This document shows, piece by piece, positions 5,279 through 36,217 of a DNA stretch of 37,133 bases. The translations under genes and the position numbers were made by a program. The notes under the pieces were generated by a model. The model had not been told where the DNA came from and did no database searches. It was given only the letters and a program-made list of their open reading frames with translations. Source of the stretch: a virus (taxonomy: Duplodnaviria > Heunggongvirae > Uroviricota > Caudoviricetes); IMG/VR virus record IMGVR_UViG_2531839477_000018; one strand, given 5' to 3'. Every line of letters begins with the position of its first letter. Positions within the stretch are counted from its first letter, which is position 1.

Positions 5279-5401
5279 GAAACCAGAACATGCACACACA
5301 AAAAAACCGCTTGCCATGCCTCAATCGGTCAGGTTACATTTCCGCTGCAGCTCATAAAACGGGTGCCGGGATTCTCAACCCGATACAGAGCAAAGCGCAT
5401 A

Positions 5402-5425
5402 ACCGCGCAAGCGGTTTTTTTGTGC
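5402..5425 (+). terminator. Putative rho-independent terminator
   Basis: ACCGC-GCAA-GCGGT hairpin followed by a run of seven T; an inverted copy of the same 15-mer lies at 5309-5323. Confidence 0.4.
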
Positions 5426-5600
5426 GTACTGTATTGCCACGTCTTTTTCGCGTCAGAATTATGGCGGGGCGTACGGGGCCGACTTCGGTCGGGCCGGATT
5501 CTTTGCTCTCCGGTGTTGAGAACCCTGTACGTCTCGCCACCCCGAGATTCTCAACTCTGGATGGTGAGTTATTTCTATCACCGAGCAAAGAGGCCACACC

Positions 5601-33219: not shown

Positions 33220-33376
33220 AGCTTCAGCCCCTTGTATCCGTTAAATGATTCAGCAACAATCATCACCCACCACGCGCGTAATCTCACCCCTGCGCTATTC
33301 TCCCGCCATGGCGACAACAAAAAGCAGTAACCCACTCCGCACGCACATGCGACCATGCCGCACAGGGAGGGAACAG
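33220..33376. promoter_or_regulatory. Divergent control region between FI (leftward) and D (rightward)
   Basis: 157-bp spacer flanked by divergent start codons; must hold promoters for both units; no canonical TGT-N12-ACA box found by eye. Confidence 0.35.
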
Positions 33377-34486
33377 ATGACCGACACCACCATGCAATTG
33401 CTCAGTCAGGGCACAGACCCCGTGAAAATGCCGGATTTTGATATTCTCGCGGAGGGTAAAACGCTGTCCGGCGTGGCAGAGCGCCTGATGAGCCTGTCGC
33501 TGACCGACAACCGGGGATTTGAGGCGGACCAGCTCACCATCACGCTGGATGATGCCGATGGCCAGTTGCAGCTACCGCCACGGGGCGCGCGTCTGACGGT
33601 TCTCATTGGCTGGAAAGGGGAACCGCTGACAGAAAAAGGCACTTACATTGTTGATGAAATCGCTCACGAAGGACCGCCGGACAGGCTGACTGTTTCAGCC
33701 AGAAGCGCAGATTTTCGGGATGAATTTAACGTTAAACGTGAGGTGTCCTGGCATGATGTGACCGTTGAGCGTGTGGTATCCGCCATCGCTCATCGGTACG
33801 GTCTGAAACCGCAAATCAGCGAAATGCTGATGGATATCGAAATCGACCACGCCGACCAGACCGAAGAAAGCGACATGTCCTTTCTTACGCGCATGGCGGA
33901 AATGCTGGGCGCAATCACCACGGTAAAAAGCGGTAATCTGTTATTCATTATGCCAGGCGGTGGCGTGAACGCACAGGGCCAGCCGTTGCCATCGTTCGCC
34001 ATCACGCGCAGCAGTGGCGATCGCCATCAGTTCCGCATTGCTGACCGCGAAGCGTATACGGGGGTACGCGCTTACTGGCTTGATCTTAATTACGGGAAAA
34101 AGAAAAAAGTCAGCGTGAAACGCCGCAAACCGCCAAAACCCAAAAAGGAGAAAAGCAGCAGCCGTGAAGGTGATTATATGGAAGGTGCGGAAGGCAATGT
34201 GTTTGTGTTACGCAAGACTTATCAGAACGAGCAGGCAGCAAGACGCGCAGCGGCGGCAAAGTGGCAACAACTACAACGCGGAGCCGCATCATTCTCCATC
34301 ACGCTGGCACGTGGACGAGCAGAACTCTACCCCGAAATGCATGGCACGGTAACAGGATTTAAAAGCGAGATTGATAATCAGGACTGGATTATTGCAAAAG
34401 CCGAGCACACCATTGATAACAGCGGCTTTACCACGCAGCTTGAGCTTGAGGCAAAAATCCCGGAATGGATAGCGGAAACAGAGTGA
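33377..34486 (+). CDS. D: Tail protein D (P2 gpD-like)
   Basis: Start at MTDTTMQLLSQG with GGGAGG RBS 7 nt upstream; the ORF-track start at 33245 adds a low-complexity leader that is probably not translated. Confidence 0.8.
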   Translation: MTDTTMQLLSQGTDPVKMPDFDILAEGKTLSGVAERLMSLSLTDNRGFEADQLTITLDDADGQLQLPPRGARLTVLIGWKGEPLTEKGTYIVDEIAHEGPPDRLTVSARSADFRDEFNVKREVSWHDVTVERVVSAIAHRYGLKPQISEMLMDIEIDHADQTEESDMSFLTRMAEMLGAITTVKSGNLLFIMPGGGVNAQGQPLPSFAITRSSGDRHQFRIADREAYTGVRAYWLDLNYGKKKKVSVKRRKPPKPKKEKSSSREGDYMEGAEGNVFVLRKTYQNEQAARRAAAAKWQQLQRGAASFSITLARGRAELYPEMHGTVTGFKSEIDNQDWIIAKAEHTIDNSGFTTQLELEAKIPEWIAETE

Positions 34487-34528: not shown

Positions 34529-34789
34529 ATGTTCCGTTGTCCGCTTTGTGGCGCATCTGCCCGTATCCGCACCAGTCGTCCGGAAAATGATTCAAACACC
34601 GTGCGGCAAAAGTATTACCAGTGTAACAACCTGGAATGCGGCGTATGCTTCTCAACACTGGAAGCTTTCCATAAATTCACATCGAAACACGCCTCCGGCG
34701 TTCACTCATCAGAAGGTATCCCGTGGCATGAGCTGCCAGCTTCACACAGGGGAAACAATCAGATGAGTTTGCCTTTACCTCAGAATTAA
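34529..34789 (+). CDS. ogr: Late gene transcriptional activator, Ogr/Delta zinc-finger family
   Basis: MFRCPLCGASARIRTSR...YYQCNNLECGVCFST matches the P2 Ogr pattern MFHCPLC....RTSR...YHQC.N..C...F (four Cys zinc finger); last phage gene. Confidence 0.85.
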   Translation: MFRCPLCGASARIRTSRPENDSNTVRQKYYQCNNLECGVCFSTLEAFHKFTSKHASGVHSSEGIPWHELPASHRGNNQMSLPLPQN

Positions 34790-34978
34790 CAGGCAGAATT
34801 GCCGGAGTAACAAAAAAGCGATAGATTACGTGCGGGTGCCTTTCGGCTGATGGTCGGAGGGAATACCCGAAGGCCGGATGTGGAAAGGCCCCGGAAAACA
34901 TTTCTGTTTAACCGAGGCCCTAACCCGTCAACCTAGCAAGTGATAGGTTAGCGCCTCTCCAACAAAGGAGCAAGCGCT

Positions 34979-35119
34979 ATGTCGCAAAAATCGCTTACGG
35001 CCATCACGTTCTGCGTGACGGTAATCCTCATCATCTGGATGCTGCACGGTTCGCTGTGTGAAATACGGATGAGCTTCTGGGGAGCGGAGTTTGCGGCGTT
35101 CTTACAGTGTAAGCAGTAA
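34979..35119 (+). CDS. Hok/Gef-family small membrane toxin (46 aa), not in the ORF track
   Basis: MSQKSLTAITFCVTVILIIWMLHGSLCEIRMSFWGAEFAAFLQCKQ: N-terminal TM helix and C-terminal LCEIR...AAFL signature of Hok/Gef; AAGGAG RBS 8 nt upstream; structured leader and hairpins around it. Confidence 0.65.
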   Translation: MSQKSLTAITFCVTVILIIWMLHGSLCEIRMSFWGAEFAAFLQCKQ

Positions 35120-35207
35120 GGAAACCGCGACGGGGAGGCAACTCCCCGTCAATCGGTTGCCGGGGTAAGGCCGATAAGGCACCCTATCTCATAGGCATGA
35201 ATAACAA

Positions 35208-35240
35208 CCCCGCAGCGTAAAAACTGCGGGGTTTCTTTTT
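35208..35240 (+). terminator. Rho-independent terminator downstream of the hok-like gene
   Basis: CCCCGCAG-cgtaaaaa-CTGCGGGG stem-loop followed by TTTCTTTTT. Confidence 0.6.
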
Positions 35241-35308
35241 GGAACTCTCACTAGCTAGTGAGCCGTTAACTGCACATAATGCTCGCACAACAAATCAGTT
35301 AAAAGAGA

Positions 35309-35704
35309 TTACTCAGCATTCTCCTGCTTCCATTGCCGGATCATTTCATCGGTAACATCACTTTCATAACATACCACGTCATACCCTCCAGTACGGCTAT
35401 ATGCACTGCGTCCACCACATCTACTACCATTCCTTGCATGATTATACGGACACGCACAATTGCCTGGATAAGATTCAATGGATTCTTTAATTATTTCTTT
35501 CTTGATCTGAGCATCTGACTTTCCTGTTGCTGCATACCCACTAAAAGATACCAAACAAAGGCAGATTGCCATTAATAAACCACATCGCATACCGATACAC
35601 TCTATTACTAACCAATCATAGCCCACATCATAAAATCGAGATGAGGAGTACAACACCTTTAACAAGAAGGTGCCATCACGATAATATGCCGTGCAATTCA
35701 TCAA
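35309..35704 (-). CDS. Hypothetical cysteine-rich secreted protein
   Basis: ORF with internal signal-peptide-like segment (MRCGLLMAICLCLVSFSGYAATG) followed by a Cys-rich ~70-aa region; weak RBS at either candidate start (35704 or about 35590); AT-rich surroundings. Confidence 0.35.
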   Translation of the reverse strand: MMNCTAYYRDGTFLLKVLYSSSRFYDVGYDWLVIECIGMRCGLLMAICLCLVSFSGYAATGKSDAQIKKEIIKESIESYPGNCACPYNHARNGSRCGGRSAYSRTGGYDVVCYESDVTDEMIRQWKQENAE

Positions 35705-35925: not shown

Positions 35926-36063
35926 AGTTCAATATGCGAAATGCAGATGAGTTGCAGGAGAGTTTTGCTTCACCCTTAGAGTTTAAACAGACGTGTACTA
36001 TCATTATTTCTGCATATCGCCACACCATCGCCACTTTACCGCCATTTAACAAAATACAAATAC

Positions 36064-36087
36064 AAAAAAACCACCCGAAGGTGGTTT
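36064..36087 (-). terminator. Rho-independent terminator of the glyW-cysT-leuZ operon
   Basis: Minus-strand AACCACC-ttcg-GGTGGTT hairpin followed by TTTTTTT, just downstream of leuZ. Confidence 0.6.
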
Positions 36088-36130
36088 CACGACACTGCTT
36101 ATTGCTTTGATTTTATTCTTATCTTTCCCA

Positions 36131-36217
36131 TGGTACCCGGAGCGGGACTTGAACCCGCACAGCGCGAACGCCGAGGGATTTTAAATCCCTTGTGTCTACC
36201 GATTCCACCATCCGGGC
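36131..36217 (-). tRNA. leuZ: tRNA-Leu (anticodon UAA)
   Basis: Reverse complement reads GCCCGGATGGTGGAATCGGTAGACACAAGGGATTTAAAATCCCTCGGCGTTCGCGCTGTGCGGGTTCAAGTCCCGCTCCGGGTACCA, 87 nt with CCA end. Confidence 0.95.

Follow-up and report, generated by a model that had tools for sequence, protein, structure and literature searches.

A Hok-family toxin gene and a predicted Sok-like antisense RNA in the cargo slot of a P88-like prophage

Just beyond ogr, near one end of a 37,133-nt stretch of caudoviral DNA (IMG/VR record IMGVR_UViG_2531839477_000018; the window), lies an open reading frame of only 46 codons. Is it the toxin gene of a hok/sok-type module, and how could such a toxin be held in check at a locus where no mok frame leads into hok? 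We conclude, with a probability of roughly 0.85, that the locus is a hok/sok-type type I toxin–antitoxin module that works by the mechanism proposed below and is carried as an autonomous cargo cassette (a "moron") in a P88-like prophage.

The hok gene and its prophage

The coding sequence and its ribosome-binding site are as follows.

34979–35119, + strand: hok coding sequence, ATG at 34979 to TAA at 35117–35119, 46 codons plus stop, encoding a Hok/Gef-family membrane toxin
34965–34970, + strand: hok Shine–Dalgarno (SD) sequence AAGGAG, 8 nt 5' of the ATG

The sequence and the list of open reading frames give a 46-aa product, MSQKSLTAITFCVTVILIIWMLHGSLCEIRMSFWGAEFAAFLQCKQ. It matches Pfam PF01848 (HOK_GEF) with 30.1 bits (E = 3.7e-7; gathering score 22), residues 7–44 aligning to profile positions 5–42 of 42. 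In the PHROG library, which has no curated cut-off, PHROG 251 (MokW-like host killing) aligns residues 1–46 to profile positions 2–49 of 50 with 82.8 bits (E = 2.5e-23). The conserved residues of the Hok family logo are M1, C-x-T in the TM segment, L-C-E following the helix and, farther on, an E (bioRxiv 10.1101/2025.08.07.668861), and all of them are present (M1, C12-V-T14, L26-C27-E28 and E37). The match to Hok is above chance and, judged by its sequence, the 46-codon frame is a real Hok-family toxin gene. Scores against two narrower NCBIfam models fall below threshold (35.8 bits for NF007290, the HokA equivalog, with a cut-off of 89; 23.6 bits for NF007279, a Hok family subfamily, with a cut-off of 73), which places the peptide, a Hok relative, outside both groups. 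Although hokA–E of K-12 encode the same protein family, and HokA is the best NCBIfam match, the present gene is not an orthologue of any of them, because 35.8 bits is far below the equivalog cut-off. A sequence-only reading of this DNA had proposed a Hok/Gef toxin at 34979–35119 behind a strong ribosome-binding site; the profile matches, the LCEIR and E-AAF motifs and the AAGGAG sequence agree with it on both points.

That reading also took the locus to be unannotated, which was true of its own ORF track only. The identical protein is RefSeq WP_000078920.1 ("Hok/Gef family protein"), where the identical DNA is annotated, PHROGs cover it, and P88 along with five further phage records of Xuanwuvirus type also has the gene. 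In the Hok catalogue by Escalera-Maurer et al., dated 2026 (bioRxiv 10.1101/2025.08.07.668861), the exact peptide appears in cluster 72 as sequence #1628. The term "MokW-like", which RefSeq phage records and PHROG 251 attach to the protein, is only a family label. Because the gene is already annotated and catalogued publicly, locating it is correct but ordinary, and carries little weight as a discovery. The catalogue was deliberately restricted to the Hok coding sequence, leaving mok, Sok and mRNA structure aside (bioRxiv 10.1101/2025.08.07.668861); the RNA anatomy of the 46-aa subfamily and its absence of mok are not stated there.

A P88-like (Xuanwuvirus, P2-like) prophage occupies leuZ, and the module is cargo within it, placed between ogr and attR and about 940 nt from the latter.

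36062–36185, no strand assigned: attR, marking the right prophage end; a 124-nt repeat of attL that spans the 3' half of leuZ plus 3'ETS-leuZ

This repeat is 99.2% identical to positions 2271–2394 of L004, beside the integrase end of the same prophage type, and K-12 homology begins at 36062. The position of the locus inside the prophage bounded by the attL/attR repeats supports the early suggestion that it travels with the phage and leaves the companion suggestion of a small adjacent island unsupported. Inspection of the prophage-free leuZ locus of K-12, a comparison that the sequence-only reading had called for, found no hok module there. The region between ogr and attP is a variable cargo slot, in which the module stands beside other cargo genes. 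Its distribution is wide: of 5426 complete E. coli genomes, 1516 contain the 461-nt region with at least 80% identity. As many as 9 copies occur in a single genome.

The transcript, its predicted switch and a predicted antisense RNA

The toxin gene belongs to a self-contained module of about 440 nt (34799–35240) that has its own predicted promoter, structured leader, 3' stem-loops and terminator.

34799–34827, + strand: predicted hok promoter, −35 TTGCCG at 34799–34804, 17-nt spacer, −10 TAGATT at 34822–34827
34834–35240, + strand: predicted full-length hok mRNA, about 405 nt, with a predicted start near 34834 and its 3' end at the terminator
35123–35158, + strand: stable 3' stem-loop, by analogy with R1 a candidate road-block to 3' exonucleolytic trimming
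35206–35240, + strand: intrinsic terminator, stem at 35206–35233 followed by a T-run

Together with the strong ribosome-binding site, this is the hok/sok layout recognized at the outset. The structured leader is supported by predicted folds and by conservation of 34834–34978 that at least equals that of the coding region; the hairpins after the stop number three (35101–35120, 35123–35158 and 35159–35171), and an intrinsic terminator with its T-run is present. In the inner stem of the road-block candidate (35129–35137/35142–35150), pairing is 100% among 72 unique relatives, with four compensatory pairs in which both sides have changed. Its counterpart in R1 is the terminal stem of the truncated mRNA (PMC9841398, PMC1635323).

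The predicted hok promoter is conserved although the DNA farther upstream is unrelated between genomic contexts. Among 76 unique relatives, T1, A2, A4 and T6 of the −10 hexamer are invariant and the TTG of the −35 hexamer is retained in 69–75. Transcription would begin near 34834, a position that we infer from the promoter and from the alignment of position 1 of the Rfam sok model there. A generic sigma-70 scan of 34700–35400 on both strands found no promoter. It misses the hok promoter because 8 of 12 consensus positions match and the scan needs 9 of 12. We do not take the blank as proof of absence, because the experimentally active Sok promoters of R1 and 933W have equally poor hexamers.

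Five elements of the RNA would make up the switch.

34834–34848, + strand: tac-like 5' element, GGGUGCCUUUCGGCU, paired with 35169–35184 in the full-length minimum free energy (MFE) fold
34883–34894, + strand: ucb, or anti-SD-like, box, GAAAGGCCCCGG, paired in the full-length fold with the GAGG region 34912–34919
34914–34957, + strand: predicted Sok-target stem-loop, stems 34914–34925 and 34946–34957, loop 34926–34945
35091–35099, + strand: downstream box in the coding sequence, paired with the start-codon region 34979–34987 in a 9-pair long-range helix
35169–35184, + strand: fbi-like 3' element, GGCCGAUAAGGCACCC, complementary to tac

The full-length mRNA has an MFE of −178.4 kcal/mol, with its 5' and 3' ends paired. 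The tac/fbi helix is predicted to have 15 pairs; the six terminal pairs form in 72 of 72 unique relatives with no compensatory changes, tac having been fixed by the search pattern that collected most of these relatives. The helix between ucb and GAGG (34914–34917, the counterpart of the R1 mok SD) contains a C34891/A34915 mismatch at the position of C74/A106 in R1 (PMC9841398). When the mRNA is folded in truncated form, 34834–34844 of tac re-pairs with ucb at 34883–34892 and the Sok-target hairpin forms, the unpaired probability of its loop rising from 0.27 to 0.49. The 11-pair helix of this hairpin is 99% paired across 72 relatives; its loop, complementary to the predicted Sok 5' tail, is the most variable part of the leader. 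The hok SD is partly sequestered by CUCC at 34957–34960 in the MFE fold. The downstream-box helix is common to the full-length and truncated MFE folds; over 72 relatives it is 99% paired, and all its changes are one-sided.

Taken over the 72 unique relatives, the switch helices are 96–100% paired, and the predicted folding matches the switch described for R1, in which the ends are closed and internal re-pairing then exposes the target hairpin. Covariation was considered as a test of tac/fbi and of the Sok stem and set aside: because these helices are nearly invariant, it neither supports nor refutes them. Folding does not reproduce the activation step in silico, because predicted accessibility hardly shifts between the full-length and truncated forms (0.34 to 0.37 for the hok SD and 0.23 to 0.27 for the AUG).

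A covariance-model search, proposed in the sequence-only reading, gave a divided answer. In a local search, Rfam RF01794 (sok) aligns end to end on the sense strand at 34834–34989 with 47.3 bits (E = 2e-9), a score under the gathering threshold of 59. In practice this "sok" model describes the hok mRNA leader in hok-sense orientation. Eight tested relatives of the 46-aa subfamily all score 37–51 bits, compared with 87 bits for an R1-like locus and 113.5 bits for 933W. Current Rfam thresholds thus miss the RNA part of the whole 46-aa subfamily.

Opposite the leader, the best reading of the minus strand is a Sok-like RNA.

34945–34973, − strand: predicted Sok promoter, −35 TTGCTC at 34973 to 34968, 17-nt spacer, −10 TAACCT at 34950 to 34945
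34938 to 34883, − strand: predicted Sok-like antisense RNA of about 55 nt, with a single-stranded 5' tail of 13–17 nt, a hairpin at 34919 to 34887 and UUU

The promoter agrees with the consensus at only 6 of 12 positions and is unseen by the generic scan. Its arrangement is that upstream of the annotated sokW RNA of phage 933W (TTGCCT-17-TAACCT), with an identical −10; the corresponding sequence at the R1-like locus is TTGCGC-17-TATCCT. Across 76 relatives each hexamer is conserved to 90% or more, and two of the relatives have TTGACT as the −35. The RNA has a predicted fold of −24 kcal/mol (z = −3.1), and its R1 counterpart is a 64-nt RNA with a 5' tail plus hairpin (PMC1635323). The outer stem is conserved in 53 sequences, with no compensatory changes within the subfamily. 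In 50 of these 53 it contains a U-G wobble, which in the sense strand would become a C/A mismatch, an asymmetry that favours the minus strand as the RNA. The conserved hexamers, the sokW-identical −10 and the predicted tail and hairpin speak for the early expectation of a Sok opposite the leader, and the blank generic scan speaks against it.

We propose that the weak, constitutive promoter at 34799–34827 would yield a stable mRNA, about 405 nt long, in which the 5' tac (34834–34848) is clamped to the 3' fbi (35169–35184). In this closed form the internal box at 34883–34894 would cover the GAGG region, and the hok SD and AUG would be held in a local helix plus the long-range helix. Slow 3' trimming to the stem-loop at 35123–35158 would remove fbi, whereupon the 5' end could re-pair with 34883–34892 and the hairpin at 34914–34957 form with its loop exposed. 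A short, unstable Sok-like RNA (about 34938 to 34883), transcribed from the minus-strand TTGCTC-17-TAACCT, would dock its single-stranded 5' tail on that loop, and the resulting duplex would inactivate or destroy the mRNA, presumably through RNase III. If Sok synthesis stopped, whether by DNA loss, transcription shut-off or prophage induction, the trimmed mRNA would be translated and the 46-aa Hok peptide would damage the inner membrane.

Much of this anatomy is shared with hok/sok (parB) of R1, whose hok mRNA is reportedly 398 nt long in the Gerdes-lab literature. Both loci encode a small toxin in which LCEIR and E-AAF motifs come after a TM helix. The remaining parallels are predictions on our side: an mRNA near 400 nt in length whose ends pair through tac and fbi, a ucb box that pairs with GAGG around the same C/A mismatch, tac/ucb refolding after 3' trimming, and an antisense RNA with 5' tail and hairpin, transcribed from a promoter that overlaps the hok ribosome-binding region (PMC9841398; PMC1635323). 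They differ in that R1 Hok has 52 aa rather than 46 (39% identity over 31 residues of the aligned core), the segment from target hairpin to hok SD is 9 nt shorter here, the Rfam sok scores are 87 and 47 bits, and the R1 module is on a plasmid whereas ours is on a prophage. A second relative, hokW-mokW-sokW of the Stx2 phage 933W and the Sakai prophage Sp5, is also a prophage-carried hok/sok, with identical Sok −10 (TAACCT) and spacing; that of Sp5 is an experimentally shown type I toxin–antitoxin system (PMC8621323). However, HokW has 51 aa, shares 34% identity with the present peptide over the aligned core and belongs to a different subfamily, its locus scores 113.5 bits on Rfam sok against 47.3 here, and its carrier is lambdoid rather than P2-like.

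Control of hok in a locus without mok

The point at which the present locus departs from its relatives is mok. MokC of K-12 is an in-frame extension of HokC, and mokW is an in-frame N-terminal extension of hokW; neither arrangement exists here. The sequence-only reading had named a short "mok-like" leader ORF. Two short frames do lie upstream (34850–34936 and 34878–34943), but the label is unjustified, because the first ends 42 nt and the second 35 nt ahead of the hok ATG, and upstream-ORF frame and length vary freely among relatives. At the present locus no ATG, GTG or TTG upstream of hok opens a frame that reaches its SD or start, the hok frame is closed upstream by TAG at 34949–34951, and the frame that overlaps hok (34925–35061) has no start codon. 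Nor, in contrast to R1, does any start codon, near-cognates included, follow the conserved GAGG at the R1 mok position. Among 75 unique relatives, 43 have no ORF reading into hok and the remaining ones use different starts. Two further candidates were rejected: the near-cognate AUC/AUA starts of some relatives lead to frames that end at the conserved UAG and are absent from the present locus, and a 3-codon GTG mini-ORF (34940–34951) is lost in relatives having GTA.

Could one of the two leader ORFs nevertheless be mok, opening the hok ribosome-binding site in the canonical way while Sok blocks its translation? The ATG at 34878, with GAAGG 4–5 nt upstream, is present in essentially all relatives, and the ORF that it starts continues past the hok start codon in 11 of the 75 unique relatives, as does an ORF from +17 in about 11 others. 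Because the ORF ends only 35 nt from the hok ATG, a ribosome terminating on it could partly melt the hairpin at 34914–34957. Counter to this, ribosomes translating mok of R1 have to reach the hok SD or go beyond it (PMC9841398), whereas both present ORFs end before it. The ORF from the conserved ATG spans anything from 1 to 79 codons, in 24 combinations of length and end, with frames shifted by indels in variable loops. Conservation of this ATG needs no coding role, because it lies in the box that pairs with tac. Given also the relatives without an ORF into hok and the GAGG without a start codon, we consider canonical mok control improbable.

With no conserved mok frame, hok translation in the 46-aa subfamily must be initiated directly at the strong SD of hok itself, and the R1 scheme does not account for its block by Sok. 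We tentatively suggest, at somewhat less than even odds, that this mostly prophage-borne subfamily (cluster 72 and relatives) is a naturally mok-less hok/sok, which has kept the R1-type switch (tac/fbi, ucb/GAGG, target hairpin and Sok) and translates Hok directly. Sok might then act through duplex-triggered decay only, or by blocking a ribosome loading or standby region some 30–90 nt upstream. The predicted Sok duplex would stop 28 nt short of the hok SD. The type I system tisB/istR-1 has a ribosome standby site upstream, and its antisense RNA binds well 5' of the toxin RBS. This is a functional analogy only, with no sequence or structural relationship, and a standby mechanism at the present hok is speculation.

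Alternatively, mok loss may have left hok untranslatable, so that the locus is a silent remnant drifting towards decay. Pedersen and Gerdes are said to have found in 1999 that several chromosomal hok loci of K-12 are inactivated by insertion elements. The missing mok frame, the sub-threshold RNA model score and the partial pairing of the hok SD and AUG in every predicted fold would all fit such a remnant. Against this, promoter, leader, ORF length and 3' structures have been kept across relatives of 73–100% identity in many genomic contexts. The ORF is exactly 46 codons long in 71 of 75 unique relatives and is damaged in only 2 of 68 unique viral-contig copies. The gene is under purifying selection (dN/dS about 0.2–0.4), and a genome may hold up to nine copies. 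Furthermore, two cluster 72 representatives, 72_1589 and 72_1621 (one residue from the present peptide), were cloned for the catalogue's toxicity assay, in which 42 of 45 constructs were toxic and the three named as non-toxic came from clusters 19, 60 and 69 (bioRxiv 10.1101/2025.08.07.668861). Variant 72_1621 is thus outside the non-toxic three, and the exact present allele is probably toxic. Decay is highly improbable, and we retain the reading of an intact hok/sok-type module.

Possible roles and what the subfamily may reveal

What the module does for its carrier is a separate question. For post-segregational killing, or prophage addiction, the sole pertinent fact is position: the module lies inside a prophage and is absent from the empty K-12 leuZ site. 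The same module could instead promote lysis and phage release on induction, or guard against other phages by abortive infection or exclusion, and we give a role of this kind a little under an even chance. In Sp5, loss of sokW after mitomycin C leads to HokW production, and phage yield with the locus is about twice that without it; what was shown for hokW-sokW is help in phage release instead of addiction (PMC8621323). The R1 hok/sok lowers T4 plating, as cited in the same paper (PMC8621323), and hok genes are four-fold enriched in prophages (bioRxiv 10.1101/2025.08.07.668861). The place of the present module among other genes in a variable cargo slot is likewise consistent with such roles. Counter to this, HokW is from a different, mok-containing subfamily, the searched literature shows no experiment on the 46-aa subfamily in a P2-like phage, and the sequence does not discriminate between these roles.

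For annotation, the analysis flags a probably toxic small ORF and an unannotated, predicted antisense RNA gene at the cargo end of common P2-like E. coli prophages. The mok-less reading, if true, would run counter to the textbook account, in which mok coupling forms an integral part of hok regulation. If the absence of mok is confirmed, this abundant subfamily would offer a natural setting in which to test Sok control without translational coupling.

The hok gene and its family

The toxin gene and its ribosome-binding site, both read from the sequence, are placed as follows.

34979-35119, plus strand: hok ORF, a 46-codon frame from ATG at 34979 to TAA at 35117-35119
8 nt before the ATG at 34979, plus strand: hok Shine-Dalgarno (SD) sequence, AAGGAG

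The predicted product, MSQKSLTAITFCVTVILIIWMLHGSLCEIRMSFWGAEFAAFLQCKQ, carries the residues conserved in the Hok family (C-x-T in the helix, L-C-E and a later E; bioRxiv 10.1101/2025.08.07.668861). It exceeds the Pfam HOK_GEF gathering score of 22 (30.1 bits, E 3.7e-7) and matches PHROG 251, "MokW-like host killing", across all 46 amino acids (82.8 bits), bearing out the Hok/Gef toxin ORF with a strong ribosome-binding site proposed by the sequence-only reading. Identity over the aligned core reaches just 39% with R1 Hok and 34% with HokW, and the peptide scores far under the cut-offs of both the NCBIfam HokA and Hok-subfamily models. These low values indicate a member of the Hok family from a subfamily other than the classical ones.

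To gauge conservation, we used 75 unique relatives: BLAST supplied those from E. coli genomes and phages, and a degenerate 27-nt pattern those from IMG/VR contigs. The frameshifts in close relatives that had been raised as a counter-argument are rare: exactly 46 codons are kept in 71 of the 75, and damage among the 68 unique viral-contig copies comprises one C-terminal frameshift and one disrupted copy. Compared pairwise with the window allele, dN/dS is 0.18-0.46, and codon position 3 holds most of the differences. By these sequence comparisons, the hok ORF is a real gene under selection.

The locus had been called unannotated, which is true only of the ORF track then in use; RefSeq, phage records and a Hok catalogue already hold the gene. 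The same 461 nt occur, identical, in many complete E. coli genomes, and the ORF is the RefSeq "Hok/Gef family protein" WP_000078920.1. Relatives of at least 80% identity are present in 1516 of 5426 E. coli genomes, with up to 9 places per genome in a more sensitive search. Phage P88 and other Xuanwuvirus-type (P2-like) phage records have the hok locus directly after ogr. A 2026 preprint catalogue of 1264 Hok peptides, which reports a four-fold enrichment of hok in prophages, includes the exact window peptide as sequence #1628 of its supplementary alignment (bioRxiv 10.1101/2025.08.07.668861). Its table of cloned constructs lists 72_1589 and 72_1621, the latter one residue (V15A) off the window peptide; 42 of 45 constructs were toxic, and the three named as non-toxic come from clusters 19, 60 and 69 (bioRxiv 10.1101/2025.08.07.668861). 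The toxicity test proposed earlier has in effect already been performed, on a near-identical allele. The finding is in this sense ordinary: a prophage hok/sok module already annotated and catalogued, with cluster representatives cloned for toxicity assay.

Module boundaries and position in the prophage

Module copies from unrelated contexts were aligned to find the boundaries of the unit. The contexts were:

P2-like prophages, after ogr
lambdoid prophages, between gpJ and the tail fibre or adjoining lom
beside a type B L31 gene
beside serS
on a plasmid

Similarity among all aligned copies starts at the -35 box (34799) and fades after the fbi element or the terminator, at about 35185-35240. Because these boundaries are shared across unrelated contexts, the unit of about 440 nt is a self-contained cassette with its own promoter and terminator, and shows the signature of a moron. 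Its place in the prophage is set by the following feature.

36062-36185: attR, right end of the prophage; a 124-nt repeat with the 3' half of tRNA-Leu (leuZ) and 3'ETS-leuZ

This repeat is 99.2% identical to the attL copy at the integrase end of a prophage of the same type in a different genome (L004 2271-2394), and its position places hok within the prophage, about 940 nt from attR. In K-12, the unoccupied leuZ locus has the order leuZ, 3'ETS-leuZ, yecA and shows no similarity to the hok region, so the locus travels with the prophage. The small adjacent island entertained as another carrier is not supported.

The att repeat spans the 3' half of tRNA-Leu(UAA) leuZ and the whole 3'ETS-leuZ small RNA (about 36064-36130 in the window; K-12 b4759), and attP thus carries its own copy and supplies the leuZ-attached copy after integration. 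A single base in the terminator loop separates the attL copy from the attR copy. The prophage has a second cargo gene, located between the terminator of hok and attR on the minus strand (35309-35590; the longest ORF extends to 35704). Its 93-aa product has several cysteines and a hydrophobic, signal-peptide-like N-terminus, read by eye from the sequence; it is the RefSeq hypothetical protein WP_071529678.1 and matches PHROG 27544 (unknown function, 199 bits) and no Pfam family. The slot is filled differently in related phages: Citrobacter phage Shae_phiSM has a tagO-like gene there, and another E. coli genome has DUF4875. Strain FORC_031 has a shorter prophage with a truncated, rearranged version of the gpD-like tail gene that precedes ogr (L001 1834-2687 vs window 33245-34486); its hok region matches the window at 100% identity, and this partly degraded prophage has kept its hok end. 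In the early region of the P2-like prophage in the window, on the plus strand, Rfam isrK (5347-5421, 59.5 bits) adjoins a C4 antisense RNA (5457-5544, 78.5 bits), both above gathering thresholds; together they suggest an antisense element of the P1/P7 type that controls immunity or an antirepressor.

Predicted sense and antisense RNAs

34799-34827, plus strand: predicted hok promoter, TTGCCG-17-TAGATT, start at about 34834
34834-34848 with 35169-35184, plus strand: clamp between the 5' element tac and the 3' element fbi, predicted full-length fold
34887-34892, plus strand: GGCCCC box, paired with the GAGG region, predicted full-length fold
34979-34987 with 35091-35099 inside the CDS, plus strand: AUG-region helix, predicted full-length fold
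35123-35158, plus strand: stable 3' stem-loop, end point for 3' truncation in folding
34973 to 34968 and 34950 to 34945, minus strand: predicted Sok promoter, -35 TTGCTC and -10 TAACCT, 17 nt apart; layout shared with the sokW promoter
about 34938 to 34883, minus strand: predicted Sok-like RNA, with a 13-17-nt single-stranded tail, stable hairpin and UUU run

The invariant -10 positions of the hok promoter are kept in 76 of 76 relatives despite unrelated upstream DNA. Rfam model RF01794, "sok", aligns end to end on the sense strand (34834-34989; E 2e-9); the covariance search suggested earlier gives this full-length alignment at 47.3 bits, under the gathering score of 59. The model also matches the hok-sense strand at an R1-like locus (87 bits) and at 933W hokW (113 bits), and is therefore in effect a hok-leader model. 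Every 46-aa-subfamily member tested scores 37-51 bits, which is why the subfamily's RNA features go unseen in routine Rfam annotation.

When the full-length transcript (34834-35238) was folded in silico, the hok SD was partly paired, and a C/A mismatch in the GGCCCC/GAGG pairing fell at the position of R1 C74/A106, the repair of which locks R1 hok mRNA in its closed form (PMC9841398). After 3' removal to 35123-35158, the 5' end is predicted to re-pair with 34883-34892, and a hairpin at 34914-34957 appears, its loop accessibility rising from 0.27 to 0.49. This predicted refolding reproduces the tac/fbi-to-tac/ucb switch of R1. Switch helices formed in 96-100% across 72 unique relatives, in which compensatory changes occur only in the 3' stem-loops and some CDS-internal helices. 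The tac/fbi helix is invariant, and tac was also fixed by the search pattern used for collection; the helix is thus conserved rather than proven by covariation. The predicted folds uphold the structured leader and the hairpins after the stop codon described from sequence alone.

On the opposite strand, the arrangement in the window is that of 933W, where the annotated sokW RNA, detected experimentally (PMC8621323), is preceded by TTGCCT-17-TAACCT, 6 nt and the start; it also matches TTGCGC-17-TATCCT at the R1-like locus. The predicted hexamers are at least 90% conserved among relatives, with the -35 improved to TTGACT in two. The Sok-like RNA has a predicted fold of -24 kcal/mol (z -3.1) and the tail-plus-hairpin architecture of the 64-nt R1 Sok (PMC1635323). 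A U-G wobble is present in the outer stem of 50 of 53 sequences; on the sense strand it would be a C/A mismatch. The tail is complementary to the loop of hairpin 34914-34957, the most variable stretch of the leader, which fits diversification of Sok specificity among multiple copies in one genome. The antisense Sok and minus-strand promoter anticipated earlier are favoured by the conserved, sokW-like promoter and the stable fold, whereas a generic promoter scan found nothing at the locus; Sok here is a prediction well supported by homology.

Tandem 46-aa hok modules occur on single IMG/VR contigs (L224 5545-5956 and 6000-6411; L152 4318-4729 and 5040-5451). The copies differ in Hok peptide and Sok-tail sequence, consistent with antisense-specificity divergence between co-resident copies. 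933W also has, near ant, a match to Rfam sRNA-Xcc1 (L016 9137-9225, minus strand; 69.1 bits, gathering 53), which is unrelated to hok.

Translational control and biological role

In R1, the start codon of mok, the leader frame coupled to hok, lies 8 nt past GAGG, and ribosomes have to read this frame at least as far as the hok SD (PMC9841398). The mokW of 933W extends hokW in frame; the window has no counterpart of it. Here GAGG (34914-34917) is conserved and is followed by no ATG, GTG or TTG; TAG at 34949-34951 closes the hok frame upstream, and no start codon occurs in the hok-overlapping frame (open over 34925-35061). The proposed mok-like leader ORF fails, as the two leader ORFs end 42 and 35 nt short of the hok ATG. 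An upstream ORF reading into hok is absent in 43 of the 75 relatives; the other 32 have differing starts (leader positions +17, +45, +47 and about +101). In eight of these, reading into hok depends solely on a different start: the +101-type TTG in two, and in six a GTG/TTG at +103 to +144, for the most part just a few nt ahead of the hok ATG. Starting from the conserved +45 ATG, the ORF is between 1 and 79 codons long. Such variation indicates that the mok frame is not a conserved feature of the 46-aa subfamily. The catalogue authors write that they left mok/Sok assignment aside because it "is not trivial" (bioRxiv 10.1101/2025.08.07.668861).

An accessibility calculation on the predicted folds gave no clear opening of the hok SD or AUG. 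The one step that the R1 scheme leaves unexplained here is the unlocking of Hok translation and its block by Sok. Most likely, Hok translation would start directly at the strong SD once the mRNA is processed, and Sok would act via duplex formation and decay.

We have high confidence in the molecular reading, a type I toxin-antitoxin module of the hok/sok kind. Three biological roles are all compatible with the data, and the sequence has nothing to discriminate among them. By analogy with R1, the module may stabilize the prophage via killing of cured cells, as first suggested. It may instead aid lysis and release on induction, as shown for hokW-sokW in Sp5 (PMC8621323), or exclude other phages, given that R1 hok/sok is reported to be active against T4 (as cited in PMC8621323). 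What is mildly novel is that an abundant subfamily appears to be mok-less, yet keeps the rest of the R1-type RNA switch.
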